A DNA stretch of 64,000 nt, from positions 16,437 to 80,436 of the forward strand of contig JAFGHQ010000042.1 of the NCBI GenBank assembly GCA_016930035.1. The letters run 5' to 3'. The stretch comes from Gammaproteobacteria bacterium (GTDB taxonomy: Bacteria > Pseudomonadota > Gammaproteobacteria > UBA12402). Positions 57,001 through 64,000 of this stretch are shown here, piece by piece. The position numbers are program-made. Position 1 is the first letter of the stretch. Each line of letters opens with the position of its first letter.

Positions 57001-60000
57001 CATATCAATGATGGTTTTAGCAAAACGTGTTTCCTCGTGAATGGCATTAAGTACGCCATCGAGTAGCTTTAGATGGCGCGATTGAATATAGGGGGCGTTG
57101 ATGACGAGGGATTCCTGAGCAAGGTGGTATCCTTGCAGGAGGTCGGGCAAAAATGTTTGTAATCCCTGGGCTTGTAAATTAATTGCTTCCAGCGGCGTTC
57201 GAAGTTCGTGGGCGATCGAAACGCCTACGGTTTCTAGAGTTTTGATACGCGCTGCTTGTGCCCTTTCTTTAATTTTTGCTTCTTGTAATTGAGCCTCTTG
57301 TTTTTTACGTTCTGTGATATCAAAAGAAATACCAAGAAGACCTATGACCTTTCCGGAAGAGTTGTGGAGGGGGACTTTATGGGTAAGGTATATTTCTTCT
57401 GGTTTGTTAGGGTTGGTTTGCTCTTCTAAAAATTTGGGTTGATTTCTTTTCATAACCTCTTTATCAATCCTATCAAGCTGCACTGCATCTTCATATTCAA
57501 AAAGGCTATGTACAGTTTTACCAATAATATTTGGTCGGAATACTAATCCAACATATTTTGCACAATTATTATTACAACCTAAATAAACCCCTTCCCGATT
57601 CATCCAATACACATTTCCTGGCATCACGGCAATCAGATTTTCATAATAATCACACATCATTTGTGCATATTGTTCTGGGGATTTTTCTTGATCTACCTCT
57701 TGCCCTGTAATCTTTTGGACCATATACGCTAAAGCCTCTATATTAGCCCGATCAATAGCGGCTAAACGCTCTTTGGCTGCTTTTAATTCTTCCTCCATTT
57801 TTTTTCGGTCAGTAATATCAAATGAAACACCAAGCAAACCTATAATATTTCCTTGTTGATCTTTTAAAGGCTTCTTATGGGATAAATAAACCCTTTCATC
57901 TGCCCCCAATTCTTCAGCAATTTGAGCAATGCCTGTAAGCATAATCTCATTATCTAAGTGATCTACAGGATCTGCATATTTCTTTGGATCAATATCATAA
58001 ACTGTTTTACCCACCATTTCTTCCCGTGTTTGAAAATTACTATGGTGAGCTTCGTTAATATTACACCCTAAATAAACCCCTTCTCGATTTTTCCAGTACA
58101 CATTTCCTGGCAAATTGGCGATAATATTGTCTAAATAATCACGCTCCTTCTGCAATTGTTTCTTTTCAGTGATGTCTTGGATCAAAATCAATATCCCAAT
58201 AGGCTCCCGCTCTTTATTAATTCTTCGAATAAACGACCAGTTTAGTTTATGAGAGCAATCAGAGTCTTTGGATAAAGAGTACTCGAAATTTTTAATGATT
58301 TTTCCCTCTAAAATAGCATTCTTCTCTTTGAAAATAGGCAAGTTTAATTGCCATTGATCGCATAAATCTTGAAAATCCGCCTTTATGGCTTGTTTTTTGG
58401 AGATATTAAAAAGATTCAATGCTGTTTGATTCACAGCATTAATATGATCATCCAAATCGATAGAAATAATTCCTATATTTAAAAAATCCATCACATCATC
58501 AATTTGATCTAAATTCCCATAGTAGTTTGATAAAGTTTCTTGCATAATGGGCCTCTTTTGAAAAACACTCTTTATTGTAATTATATTAATATCTTTATAT
58601 CCTCTTTTATCCATTTACTGAGACAATACTAAATCAAGGAGGAATTTTTGGAAATAATAATAACATAAAGGTAAATACACTATTCCATGATTAATGAACA
58701 TGATTTAAGGTTAATTCGAGAATGGAATCAAACAGAAAAACAATTTCCACAAAAAACCGTCCATCAACTTTTTGAAGAGCAGGTCGAAAAAACACCTGAT
58801 CATATTGCTGTTATCTTTGAAAATCAGCAACTCACTTACAAAGAACTTAACGAAAAATCTAATCAATTAGCGCATTATCTTCGAAAATTAGGCGTCAAAC
58901 CCAATACATTCGTGGCTATTTGTCTCGAACGTAGTCTGGAAATGATTATTGGAATATTAGGTATTTTAAAAGCTGGGGGAGTATACGTCCCTTTAGATCC
59001 TGATTCCCCCCAAAAGCGTTTATACTTTATATTAGAAGACATGAAAACTTCGATATTGTTAACATATTCCAAATTTTTAGAGAAATTTTTTAATCATCAA
59101 AATAAAATTATCTGCCTAGATCAAGCGGAATTTCTAAAAAAAATTAAGCTAGTATCTAGGAAAAACCCTAAAAGAAATAACAAACCCGATGATCTGACTT
59201 ATATCATCTATACTTCCGGAACGACAGGGAAACCTAAAGGTGTCCTCTTGCCTCACAAGACAATTACAAACCTTATTTATTGGCAGTCGAAGCAATATAA
59301 AGTTAATGCAAATAAAATAACACAATATGCATCCTCCATTTTTGATGTTTCCTTACAGGAAATCTTTTCTGCTTTATTAAATGGATATGAATTACATATT
59401 GTTCCTCAAAAGATGAAGCTTGATTTGAAAAATTTTATACAATTCATTGAAAGAAAAAAAATAAATACAGTATTTTTACCTACAAGTCTTTTAAACATTT
59501 TTGCTAGCGAGGCGCTAAAAAAAGTTTATTTGATAAATACACTGAAATTTTTGATTGTTGCAGGAGAAAGGCTAAGAATTACATATAATATACGTCTGTT
59601 ATTTAAACAGTATCCTAATGTGAAATTAATTAATCATTATGGTCCTTCTGAAACACATGTGGTCACTTCCTATGAATTTCCCGGGTACCCTTTTTCATGG
59701 AATAAATTTCCGCCCATAGGTCTCCCCATCGCTAATACAAATATTTATATACTGAACAAAAAAATGCAGCTTATTTTAATTGGTGAAATTGGCGAACTCT
59801 ACATCGGTGGTGTTGGTTTAGCTCGGGGTTATCTAAATCAACCTGAATTAACTCGGGAAAAATTTATTAAAAATCCTTTTTCGGATGATCCTCATTCACG
59901 TCTTTATAAAACTGGGGATTTAGCTCGGTGGCTTCCTGATGGTAATTTGGAATTTATCGGTAGGATTGACAATCAAGTCAAAATTCACGGATTCCGTGTT

Positions 60001-63000: not shown

Positions 63001-64000
63001 TATCTGAATCATCCTAAACTTACTCAAGAAAAATTCATTAAGAACCCATTTTCCGACGATCCCAGTGCTCGGCTTTATAAAACAGGCGACATCGTCCGTT
63101 GGCTGCCGGACGGAAATTTAGAGTTTATTGGGCGTTCTGATTTCCAAGTGAAAATTCGAGGATTTCGCATTGAATTGGGTGAAATTGAACATGCTTTGCT
63201 CAAACATAAATCCGTGGATCAAGCGGTAGTCGTCACCCAGGAAGATGAGAAAACGCATGATAAACGGCTCGATGCTTATTTAGTATTAAAATCAGGTTAT
63301 TCAACCGAAGCAATATCTGTGATTCGCCAACATCTCCTTCGCCTATTGCCTCATTACATGATTCCCGCTACGTTTACTGTGTTAAATAAACTTCCTACCA
63401 CCGCCAGCGGCAAAGTGAATCGAAAAGCATTACCTGAACCCAACCTCGAAGCCCTTGCCCGCCGTAAAAAATATACTGCCCCCACCACACGACTGGAAGC
63501 GATCATCACCAAAATTTGGTCTGAAATATTGCACATCAAACGCATTGGAATTCACGACGATTTCTTTGAACTTGGCGGCCACTCGATCGCTGCCATCAAT
63601 ACTATCGCGGAAATCAATGACGTCATGGGTTGTGAACTTGCCGTATGCGAAATCTACCACCAACCTACCATTTCAACACTCGCCGCACGCATTGAGGAGA
63701 GGCAAAATGAGAATATTACTTAATTTCATACTATAAAAAAGAAACTTTAAATCGTCTAAACAATGGTGGTCACTTGAATCTTGGCCGCTCCCTCCTATCT
63801 TCTGATCTTTCTGATCTTTCTTCAGGTTCAACGCCTCTTTTTCTGCTCGTGGTTTCTTGGGCTGTTCTTATACTTTTCAAAATGTCCTTAGGGGATTGAC
63901 CTACCGTAGGTTGCAAAGGCGCATAGTGATCCCCTGTGTATTGAAGAAAAATGGGCTCTTTATCAGCATACTTTTTGTCTTCTTGCACTGAACAATAAAT

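Follow-up and report, generated by a model that had tools for sequence, protein, structure and literature searches.

How could a two-module non-ribosomal peptide synthetase (NRPS) that ends at a carrier domain release its product, and what might such an enzyme do beside a sensor kinase and a quorum-sensing-type regulator? These questions are raised by a gene near the end of the 64,000-nucleotide stretch of gammaproteobacterial DNA analyzed here (the window). Taken alone, it would merely add to the orphan NRPSs known from metagenome bins, and the similar starts of its adenylation (A) domains are ordinary NRPS anatomy. What sets it apart is not this internal repeat: here and in uncultured relatives resembling Legionella, such genes recur with the kinase and the regulator as their neighbors.

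An earlier note, made from the sequence alone, had described the host genome as Legionellales-like and host-adapted. This description is plausible: relatives of the PBP2 encoded in the window are at most 61% identical, the only named genus among them being Aquicella (54%), and the window encodes BEACH/ankyrin and OTU proteins. The accompanying view that an NRPS is unexpected in such a genome does not hold: among the biosynthetic clusters of Legionella, those of NRPS type are the most prevalent (Tobias et al., 2016; PMC5126622), and related metagenome-assembled genomes (MAGs) share the cassette. No named Legionella protein was present among the best 120 homologs of the NRPS.

Architecture of the Synthetase Gene

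The NRPS gene (58687..63723, forward strand; NCBI protein MBN1684247.1) is the longest open reading frame (ORF) at its position and encodes 1678 residues in the order A1-T1-C-A2-T2. Pfam matches follow the same order, with AMP-binding/AMP-binding_C, PP-binding (547-612), Condensation (632-1070), AMP-binding (1089-1440)/AMP-binding_C (1499-1576) and PP-binding. On the forward strand, the domains comprise A1 (approximately residues 1-528; 58687..60270), the carrier domain T1 (residues 545-612; 60319..60522), with GGHS at 573-576 and its serine at 576, the condensation (C) domain (residues 632-1070; 60580..61896), A2 (residues 1089-1576; 61951..63414) and the carrier domain T2 (63493..63720), with GGHS at residues 1630-1633. 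The A domains match Pfam AMP-binding at 2.9e-170 and TIGR01733 with 877 bits (cut-off 317), and core motifs A1-A10, including the catalytic lysine, are present in the translation, with minor variants in A2 (TSATTGLAKG, SGKVNR). Both PP-binding domains retain the phosphopantetheine-attachment serine. The Condensation match (3.4e-88) has an intact HHLLID active site, aligned to MHHMIVDG of PDB 5u89, and in the PDB it is matched best by C domains of the ordinary elongation type. The protein stops 45 residues past the T2 GGHS serine and carries no docking tail, and Pfam found neither a thioesterase or reductase nor a terminal C domain in its 1678 residues. Such terminal release domains are typical of type I modular NRPSs, although not strictly defining. 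The earlier reading of an A-T-C-A-T protein that begins with a loading A domain, ends after its second carrier domain and has no release domain is therefore confirmed, and the dipeptide-derived product that it anticipated is supported by the domain order and motifs. Judged by its sequence, the gene is an intact two-module peptide synthetase.

A paralog, P0041 (1683 residues, 55% identical), has the same A-T-C-A-T order. Searching genome contigs with the NRPS alignment, in a collection without the MAG of the window and the paralog contig, returned generic NRPSs only (at most 36% identical), while 79 loci from metagenome contigs, all at 42% or less, were mostly large multi-gene assembly lines and included no further close family member. 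The check for a PPTase gene that had been proposed came out negative for the ORFs of at least 100 residues in the window and for the 66 kb examined.

Predicted Substrates

Stachelhaus codes were extracted, as had been suggested, using a reference that we take to be GrsA, whose anchor positions were checked. The codes are DVQFIAHVVK for A1 and DAENIGTIDK for A2, the former becoming DVQ[F/V]IAHVVK when the alternative register, with V at position 278, is included. These distinct codes and the approximately 30% identity of the specificity regions bear out the earlier claim that the two domains differ in specificity. DVQFIAHVxK has been assigned to proline (PMC2866473, Table 2), and A1 conforms to the proline code that was tested, DVQ(L/F/Y)IAHV(V/T)K. 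The best PDB matches of the A1 core are the proline-activating domains GrsB1 (8p5o) and TycB1 (9bfd_B), and A1 is predicted to activate proline. The A2 code includes the acidic residues E239 and D331 and compares with DAENIGMIDK in module 1 of the NRPS at locus L097; literature searches for DAENIG.. codes found nothing, and the PDB matches of the A2 core are uninformative on substrate. The NRPS product is probably a proline-containing dipeptide.

Age of the Resemblance Between the Adenylation Domains

The starts of the two A domains had been noted as approximately 80% identical and attributed to a recent intragenic duplication or recombination. The identity was reproduced, with 80% over 99 residues between the conserved N blocks of A1 (residues 12-110; 58720..59016, forward strand) and A2 (residues 1071-1170; 61897..62196, forward strand), and 83-90% in 30-residue windows. 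A second conserved block, absent from the earlier note, pairs residues 367-445 of A1 (59785..60021, forward strand; motifs A6-A8) with residues 1424-1500 of A2 (62956..63186, forward strand) at 78% identity. The recent date was not sustained. At the DNA level, the two blocks are 73 and 70% identical, with third-position identities of 0.50 and 0.42. Given a saturated NG86 dS and exact shared runs that reach no more than 15 nt, the similarity is old. The concerted-evolution test on the N block, with 2 concerted against 1 orthologous informative sites, too few to weigh, does not favor concerted evolution. Within 118 other multimodular NRPSs, the same block has a median identity of 0.64, and values of 0.80 or more occur in 19% of A-domain pairs and 27% of proteins; the resemblance seen here lies above the family median and is not exceptional. 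That recent duplication or gene conversion made the starts near-identical might be argued from the P0041 protein, whose two N blocks share 87% of their residues, including a long unbroken stretch, and from the Logan contig of its locus, which breaks inside the N block. For the window gene, this origin is refuted by the nucleotide divergence described above and by the ordinary frequency of such identities.

Conserved flanks around a divergent core represent the usual A-domain pattern in the 118-NRPS comparison. P0041 is the nearest relative of all segments of the NRPS except the A1 core. For that core its rank is 115 of 119, and rank 1 falls to the module-2 core of the L090 NRPS (49.7%); the second-closest relative of the A2 specificity region is L097 module 1. 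This pattern supports an old exchange of A-domain specificity cores, and the resemblance of the domains would reflect old, selectively maintained flanks around exchangeable cores.

Integrity and End of the Gene

The GC3 of the NRPS gene rises from 0.26 to 0.40 in its 3′ segment (62200..63723, forward strand). The change point, after codon 1171 (support interval 1090-1260), coincides with the point at which the conserved N block of A2 ends, and a step of this size was reached by 0 of 500 shuffles. Such a step could mark a chimeric assembly, in which NRPSs from two organisms had been joined at the conserved block, or the gene could be a relic in decay. Either origin is nonetheless highly improbable: the ORF is uninterrupted, every catalytic motif is present, and across 13,308 nt an independent assembly of SRR13394437 (L001) shows no mismatch to the window. 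Moreover, both GC3 values fall within the range of the window genes (0.24-0.40), P0041 remains the nearest relative of the 3′ part, and the following gene has a genome-typical GC3 of 0.29, which would demand a second switch inside a 46-bp spacer.

An assembly line that continues just downstream is also very unlikely, even if a thioesterase (TE), a reductase (R) or a terminal C domain closes most characterized bacterial NRPS lines, a TE is carried by two related cassettes (L089, L092/93) and closes those of L089 and L093, and the sequence examined 3′ of the window amounts to 2.3 kb. The earlier note had held that a TE, an R or further modules must lie beyond the window. Instead, 46 bp from the NRPS stop codon lies the 3′ end of a convergent gene (63770..64000, reverse strand) that encodes at least 843 residues with an OTU cysteine-protease domain, is without a PDB sequence relative and bounds the NRPS locus; neither the spacer nor this gene holds the TE or R that was to be sought. 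The minus-strand ORF at 63770..63988, correctly discounted as a release enzyme, is the 3′ end of this OTU gene. The upstream neighbor is a divergent kinase, a C-terminal docking tail is missing from the NRPS, and since each paralog begins with an A domain, neither can accept the chain of the other. P0041 and the NRPSs of loci L086, L090 and L097 are all A-T-C-A-T proteins ending 42-53 residues past their last carrier serine, which brings the NRPSs of homologous context that end at T2 to five; the L090 gene is followed by cas1/cas3 and the L086 gene by a kinase. Because of these shared ends, the T-terminated form is a conserved design, and the T2 end of the window NRPS is best read as native rather than a truncation.

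The Kinase, the Regulator and Their Recurrence

Divergent from the NRPS gene lies a gene for a soluble PAS-PAS histidine kinase (56518..58614, reverse strand), with the H-box HELRTPL and no hydrophobic segment (maximum KD19 1.15). NCBI places its start 23 codons later, which leaves a kinase-NRPS intergenic region of approximately 141 bp. A sigma-70-like promoter match (TTGAAA-18-TATATT, 10/12; 58558..58587, forward strand), a consensus match only, is found approximately 100 nt 5′ of the NRPS start, and the motif ATAATAATAAC..AAGG (58655..58678, forward strand), directly 5′ of the NRPS ATG, also occurs at the paralogous locus L085 and at L090.

A response regulator of the LqsR family (55325..56389, reverse strand) is encoded on the kinase strand, downstream of the kinase gene. 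It matches PDB 6sy9 over its full length, in the receiver as well as the LqsR-specific C-terminal domain (E 7.6e-75, residues 23-353 aligned to 25-352), an entry labeled "Response regulator" that we take to be L. pneumophila LqsR, and also plasmid-borne Legionella homologs at 29%. The receiver aspartate of LqsR is Asp108 (PMC5289986), and that of the window protein aligns in VVVIDYAMP. A CsiV-like gene beside the regulator was considered as the conserved 230-251-residue ORF of L089, L090 and L095, and it is not that ORF. Likewise, the only alpha-oxoamine synthase of the window (44306..45538), considered as an LqsA candidate, is KBL-like (253 bits, against 81 bits for CqsA).

The cassette recurs within and between genomes. 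On L085, from the same sequencing run, a kinase paralog (P0248, 56%) is divergent from the gene for P0041, and the accessions MBN1684102, MBN1684215 and MBN1684247 point to one MAG; the kinase-NRPS pair is very probably duplicated within the same genome. Among 10 informative loci of related MAGs with kinase homologs, picked without knowledge of their context, 7 have an NRPS directly beside the kinase, and an LqsR-family regulator follows the kinase in L089, L090, L095 and L097. The conservation of this arrangement in sequence shows that the NRPS, the PAS histidine kinase and the LqsR-family regulator are linked. Between cassettes, the NRPSs share 28-43% identity, which is no more than they have in common with cyanobacterial NRPSs that are unrelated, and the shared context could therefore stem from repeated recruitment instead of common descent. 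The two-component system may control the NRPS, or the NRPS product may be the cue sensed by the kinase, since adjacency alone cannot separate "regulated by" from "sensed by"; the NRPS is possibly the signal synthase of the system. A bolder and rather speculative proposal is that the cassette constitutes an undescribed signaling module of uncultured Legionellales-like bacteria, either cell-cell or host-directed, in which the NRPS would act as autoinducer synthase and the cytoplasmic PAS kinase would sense a membrane-permeant dipeptide or diketopiperazine and signal through the LqsR-family regulator. Paralogous cassettes in one genome (window and L085; L091 and L098) would then be separate signal channels, combining a few A-domain cores (Pro-like, DAENIGxIDK and D[FM][TF]K[IV]GEVAK).

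Proposed Product Release

On balance, we lean toward a free-standing synthetase that makes a Pro-X dipeptide or diketopiperazine, releases it non-enzymatically and forms a functional unit with the kinase and the LqsR-family regulator. As suggested by the domain order and motifs, A1 would load L-proline on T1, A2 would load a second amino acid X on T2, and the elongation C domain would form a Pro-X dipeptidyl thioester on T2. By analogy with the fungal enzyme PpzA-2, the proline nitrogen would most likely attack this thioester to give a cyclo(Pro-X) diketopiperazine, with no dedicated domain involved. Variants of PpzA without an R domain yield diketopiperazines of the Pro-Arg type through non-enzymatic cyclization, which the nucleophilic proline nitrogen favors (PMC6926027). 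A distant type II thioesterase, or side-chain lactamization in case X is basic, are possible alternatives. As for the chemistry, the secondary amide of Pro-X, compared to X-Pro, disfavors the cis form needed for cyclization.

Release in trans, by a type II thioesterase (TEII), a hydrolase or a free-standing C domain encoded elsewhere, would also account for a complete NRPS, and we regard it as a less likely but serious alternative; the enzyme would be common to the paralogous cassettes, and the product might be a linear or amine-capped dipeptide. Trans-acting TEIIs are established partners of NRPSs. The first-module codes of the paralog and other T-terminated members (DFTKIGEVAK, DAENIGMIDK and DGSIAIGICK) are not proline codes, and proline-driven cyclization consequently cannot be the general release route of the group; given these differing first residues, one chemistry-independent factor would be economical, and a shared trans-acting factor elsewhere in the genomes would explain all T-terminated members. 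Against this, none of the five T-terminated genes has such a gene beside it, with no TE, hydrolase, MbtH or PPTase gene beside the NRPS of the window, L086 or L090, and the PpzA-2 precedent needs none (PMC6926027). Whichever route applies, bacterial two-module synthetases that consistently have no release domain represent natural test cases for non-enzymatic diketopiperazine release. To our knowledge, this has so far been demonstrated cleanly only in a fungal enzyme.

Comparison With Known Systems

The closest parallel to the proposed release is PpzA-2 of Epichloë, a truncated peramine synthetase (PMC6926027). As with the window NRPS, it has two modules and ends at the second carrier domain, and its first module loads L-proline, as predicted here for A1; it needs neither a release domain nor a clustered thioesterase, its dipeptidyl thioester cyclizing non-enzymatically to a diketopiperazine. 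Its diversity arose through exchange of functionally divergent domains between alleles, and domain exchange is a shared trait. Unlike the window NRPS, PpzA-2 is eukaryotic, its module 2 contains a degenerate N-methyltransferase, and it owes its origin to the deletion of an R domain by a transposon, whereas the 46-bp spacer of the window shows no trace of a lost domain and diverged paralogs have the T2 end in common. The likeness is one of organization and chemistry, with no sequence relationship claimed beyond generic NRPS homology. AusA-type pyrazinone synthetases (A-T-C-A-T-R) share the bimodular dipeptide logic, and the NCBIfam AusA model gives 1253 bits, below its 2500 cut-off; in contrast to AusA, the window NRPS has no reductase domain and thus no aldehyde/pyrazinone route. 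The D-Phe-Pro diketopiperazine side reaction of GrsA/GrsB1 illustrates that proline-containing dipeptidyl thioesters cyclize spontaneously, with proline at position 2 rather than the predicted position 1 of the window NRPS; L090 has the order Gln-Pro.

The Legionella NRPS clusters described by Tobias et al. (2016; PMC5126622) resemble the window in being small NRPSs of Legionellales. Some adjoin genes for regulators, and a role as signal synthases has been proposed as a possibility for them; for activation, the clusters rely on one Sfp-type PPTase whose gene lies elsewhere. Unlike the window NRPS, the widespread ones discussed in the text of that paper are mostly monomodular (A-T-C, F-A-T-R, A-T-TE), and its passages considered here make no mention of a bimodular A-T-C-A-T protein beside an LqsR-type system.

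In the Lqs system of Legionella (lqsA-lqsR-hdeD-lqsS; PMC8023197, PMC5289986), as in the window, genes for an LqsR-family regulator, a sensor kinase and a small-molecule synthase are clustered, and the phc-phcX arrangement of Ralstonia is comparable as the same type of cluster (PMC10653808). In Lqs the synthase is the PLP-dependent LqsA and in phc the methyltransferase PhcB, whereas the window has an NRPS; the window kinase is soluble and of the PAS type, unlike the membrane-bound LqsS and LqsT. A change of partner synthase system, from lqs to phc, is already known for the LqsR family (PMC10653808). The conservation of NRPSs beside a PAS kinase and an LqsR-type regulator concerns a family tied to quorum sensing in both Legionella and Ralstonia, and an NRPS-based partner for such regulators, if true, would provide a directly testable hypothesis. 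With neither an LqsA/CqsA-type synthase nor a membrane LqsS-type kinase present at it, the window locus is not an Lqs system, but it may work like one.

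Architecture and limits of the synthetase gene

The NRPS gene (58687..63723, plus strand) is the longest open reading frame at its place and encodes a protein of 1678 aa. Its Pfam domains, with the AMP-binding/AMP-binding_C pair and PP-binding each occurring twice and Condensation once, follow the order A-T-C-A-T (A, adenylation; T, carrier; C, condensation); neither a thioesterase or reductase nor a terminal condensation domain was detected. Only generic NRPS models of NCBIfam were matched, every one under its equivalog cut-off. The adenylation motifs are legible in the translation (LTYxEL, LKAGGxYVPLD, YTSGTTGKPKG / YTSATTGLAKG, FDxS, NxYGPxE, GELYIGG, YKTGD, LPxYMIP and the A10 lysine), as are the GGHS serine of both carrier domains and HHLLID in the condensation domain, which in PDB comparison resembles the ordinary elongation domains 5u89, TycC6 and SrfA-C. 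The C-terminus lies 45 residues past the second carrier serine. The bimodular synthetase is intact, with a T2 end conserved among diverged relatives, and the earlier note had described it accurately as a two-module protein with similar adenylation domain starts and no release domain.

An independent Logan assembly (L001, run SRR13394437) is identical to the window across 13,308 nt and reaches 2.3 kb further. The NRPS stop codon is followed by a 46-bp spacer and a convergent gene (63770..64000 in the window, minus strand; 13078..15609 in L001) encoding at least 843 aa, with a C-terminal OTU cysteine protease of the deubiquitinase type (GNCLFDAIA...GDHYAPL; Pfam OTU) and no sequence relatives in PDB. 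On the other side, 72 bp (longest kinase reading frame) or about 141 bp (NCBI-annotated start) separate the NRPS start from a divergent kinase. The locus ends at the NRPS stop codon, and the proposal that a release partner must lie downstream is contradicted by the short spacer, the convergent OTU gene and the T2 end shared with relatives. The window reading frames of at least 100 aa include no thioesterase, hydrolase, MbtH or PPTase gene.

A compositional step has been detected inside the gene, with GC3 rising from 0.26 to 0.40 past codon 1171 (window 62200, with a support interval of codons 1090-1260), where the conserved A2 block ends; the observed likelihood ratio was reached by 0 of 500 shuffles. 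Other window genes average 0.32 ± 0.04, and the rise is limited to the 3' third of the gene (62200..63723), since GC3 is 0.29 again in the OTU gene downstream. The agreement of two assemblies and the return to normal composition after the NRPS gene argue against a chimera. The nearest relative of the 3' part remains P0041, a homologous NRPS.

Adenylation domains, predicted substrates and the paralog

Residues 12-110 of A1 and 1071-1170 of A2 are 80% identical (83-90% in 30-residue windows) and a second block (367-445 and 1424-1500) is 78% identical, with the stretch of the specificity residues at about 30%. A recent intragenic duplication or recombination had been suggested for this similarity, a reading which the DNA contradicts: nucleotide identity is no higher than 73% and 70% in the two blocks, third-position identity is 50% and 42% (chance expectation 28%), Nei-Gojobori dS has reached saturation, and the two modules have no exact run in common longer than 15 nt. 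The similarity is old and kept by selection on the protein, and does not stem from recent duplication or conversion. Among 118 other multimodular NRPSs from the homology search, the median within-protein identity was 0.64 for the N-terminal block and 0.33 for the core; a block identity of 0.80 was reached in 19% of pairs, and by at least one pair in 27% of proteins, placing the window NRPS in the upper fifth. This distribution indicates that a divergent core within conserved flanks is normal NRPS adenylation domain anatomy.

Specificity codes were read by aligning both domains to GrsA-PheA, in what we take to be its reference sequence, with D235, I299, A301, A322, I330 and C331 all found at their proper places. 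The A1 code is DVQFIAHVVK (position 278 being V, not F, under an alternative register), and the best PDB matches of the A1 core are the proline-activating GrsB1 (8p5o) and TycB1 (9bfd_B), which have FDVxxQEIFS and NHYGPSETHVVT in common with it. DVQFIAHVxK has been tabulated as a proline code (PMC2866473). Judged by its predicted pocket, the first adenylation domain is of the proline type. The A2 code, DAENIGTIDK, contains two acidic pocket residues, and neither a literature search for the code nor PDB comparison of the core gave a substrate match; the acidic residues may tentatively suggest a side chain that is cationic or long and polar. The claim that the two specificity regions differ is upheld by the codes as well as by the low identity. 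As the NRPS has no epimerase, an L-Pro-L-X dipeptide would be expected.

P0041 (MBN1684102.1; 1683 aa) was the only close NRPS relative among 5.8 billion proteins, being 55% identical with the same architecture and end point. The two genes are almost certainly paralogs within one MAG and not orthologs, because the P0041 accession neighbours those of the window NRPS (MBN1684247.1) and PBP2 (MBN1684215.1) and its first 68 codons were found on a Logan contig from the same run as the window. The adenylation flanks of the pair are 80-90% identical, the T and C domains 50-60% and the A1 core 20-28%; for the A1 core P0041 ranks 115 of 119, but it is the nearest relative for all other segments. Its codes are DFTKIGEVAK and DAA[S/H]IGIIDK, the latter depending on the alignment used. 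On these sequence comparisons, one gene of the pair has exchanged its module-1 specificity core.

A recurrent cassette of NRPS, PAS kinase and LqsR-family regulator

The window NRPS is part of a recurrent cassette. The divergent gene (56518..58614, minus strand) encodes a soluble histidine kinase with two PAS_4 domains, the H-box HELRTPL, HATPase_c and no hydrophobic segment, and is followed by a response regulator gene (55325..56389, minus strand). The regulator has only a weak, partial Response_reg match in Pfam and matches PDB 6sy9 ('Response regulator'), which is presumably the L. pneumophila LqsR structure, across its whole length (E 7.6e-75), with the receiver aspartates aligned. This aspartate is Asp108 in LqsR (PMC5289986). 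The regulator further matches the lqsR homologs which PMC8023197 describes from Legionella plasmids.

Ten kinase homologs, taken by coverage and extent of contig, were considered with the window; 10 of the 11 loci are informative, since the contig of P0250 begins 123 nt ahead of the kinase and leaves its upstream side unreadable. An NRPS directly adjoins the kinase in seven. Besides the window, these comprise L085, where kinase P0248 (56% identity) is divergent from P0041; three loci with A-T-C-A-T proteins, convergent with the kinase in L086-88 (1622 aa) and divergent in L090/91 (1677 aa) and L097/98 (1741 aa); L089, with a divergent A-T-C-A(MT)-T-TE protein; and L092/93, with a longer F-A-T-...-TE line. 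Five of the seven NRPSs are thus A-T-C-A-T proteins, ending 42-53 residues past the last carrier serine. An LqsR-family regulator, 31-37% identical to that of the window, follows the kinase in L089, L090, L095 and L097. MAG GCA_030644425.1 carries two cassettes (L091, L098), like the MAG of the window. The physical linkage of NRPS, PAS kinase and LqsR-type regulator is conserved, co-duplication included, and no description of a cassette combining a release-domain-free bimodular NRPS with these two proteins was found in the searchable literature.

NRPSs of different cassettes are only 28-43% identical, yet specificity cores recur among them. The proline-type A1 core of the window is most similar to the L090 module-2 core, DVQFIAQVVK (49.7%, rank 1 of about 124), the A2 code recurs as DAENIGMIDK in L097 module 1, and D[FM][TF]K[IV]GEVAK is found in P0041, L086 and L089. 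The window, L085 and L090 share a short motif, ATAATAATAAC..AAGG, ahead of the NRPS start. In the window, AAGGAGGA occupies 58637..58646, with a second AAGG nearer the start; at 41-50 nt upstream of the ATG it is too far away to be the NRPS ribosome-binding site. Speculatively, the GGA motifs could be candidate CsrA-type binding sites. In L089, L090, L095/96 and L097/98, the kinase-regulator pair is followed by an opposite-strand conserved ORF of 230-251 aa and then csrA, with hfq further on in L090 and L097/98; a CsiV-like gene replaces this ORF in the window.

At the three informative loci where no NRPS adjoins the kinase, a roughly 400-aa ORF of no known domain and/or a PQ-loop gene lies ahead of it. 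The former directly precedes the kinase in L094 (6780..7988) and L095 (6787..8004, overlapping the kinase start), the two proteins being 31% identical, and may be an alternative kinase partner. In L095/96 and L099/100, small PQ-loop (SemiSWEET-like) genes immediately precede the kinase; in L089 and L097 such genes are found on the far side of the NRPS, and a PQ-loop is fused to the kinase in six homologs (P0269, P0270, P0275, P0291, P0353, P0366). A further NRPS-kinase pair, of another type, lies at L086 1..3517 on the contig of an A-T-C-A-T cassette: a formyltransferase-A-T-reductase NRPS beside a hybrid PAS kinase/receiver.

Genomic setting

The Legionellales-like, host-associated origin proposed earlier is reasonable: relatives of the window PBP2 are MAG proteins at no more than 61% identity, with Aquicella (Legionellales, Coxiellaceae; 54%) the sole genus name among the best 120 matches, and other window genes code for the OTU protein, a protein joining BEACH with ankyrin repeats, and several large products with no Pfam match. 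That an NRPS is unexpected in such a lineage cannot be maintained, as NRPSs are described in Legionellales (PMC5126622).

The BEACH protein (34602..37943, minus strand; 1113 aa, BEACH 4e-69, then ankyrin repeats) is likely a secreted effector, since this domain combination is typically eukaryotic. The ORFs with no Pfam match reach 1153 aa (6129..8201, 20461..22461, 26216..28384, 28431..31892, 32064..33587, 33904..34383), and several have a GC3 of 0.24-0.28, as expected of lineage-specific effector-like genes. At 16961..18508, tRNAs Ser-GGA, Arg-CCT and Ser-GCT surround a 167-aa serine dehydratase alpha chain fragment (17125..17628), a spot that looks rearranged or degraded; an AAA_14/DUF4143 ATPase gene follows, with a second one at 41927..43285. 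An operon-like row (44306..49448, minus strand) of a KBL-type alpha-oxoamine synthase, which is not CqsA/LqsA-like, an NAD-dependent epimerase/dehydratase, an NDP-forming acyl-CoA synthetase and a CDP-alcohol phosphatidyltransferase may constitute a lipid or amino-alcohol pathway. A gene for an HTH plus SocA/Panacea antitoxin adjoins a 125-aa ORF at 39106..40240 (minus strand), a probable toxin-antitoxin pair, and at 748..3442 (plus strand) the gene for an RLAN-containing, RimK-like ATP-grasp protein precedes that for a GCS2-family glutamate-cysteine-ligase-like protein.

Product release and comparison with known systems

The NRPS would build Pro-X on T2, to be released without a dedicated domain. 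The best precedent is the fungal PpzA-2, a two-module NRPS which ends at T2 since its R domain was lost and onto which L-Pro is loaded first; it frees a diketopiperazine by non-enzymatic cyclisation, aided by the strongly nucleophilic proline nitrogen, and has no clustered thioesterase (PMC6926027). The other T-terminated cassette NRPSs do not begin with Pro, which counts against generalising a PpzA-2-type release beyond the window protein, although L090 has the classical X-Pro order. Release by a trans-acting hydrolase encoded elsewhere is therefore a serious rival.

The linkage would mean that the NRPS is under the control of the two-component system or, alternatively, that its product is sensed by the kinase; the PQ-loop fusion in some kinase homologs would fit putative small-molecule sensing. 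LqsR-family regulators are known to accompany quorum-sensing synthase-sensor sets, and the family has changed systems once before, from lqs to phc (PMC10653808); signal roles have been proposed for regulator-linked Legionella NRPSs by Tobias et al. (PMC5126622).
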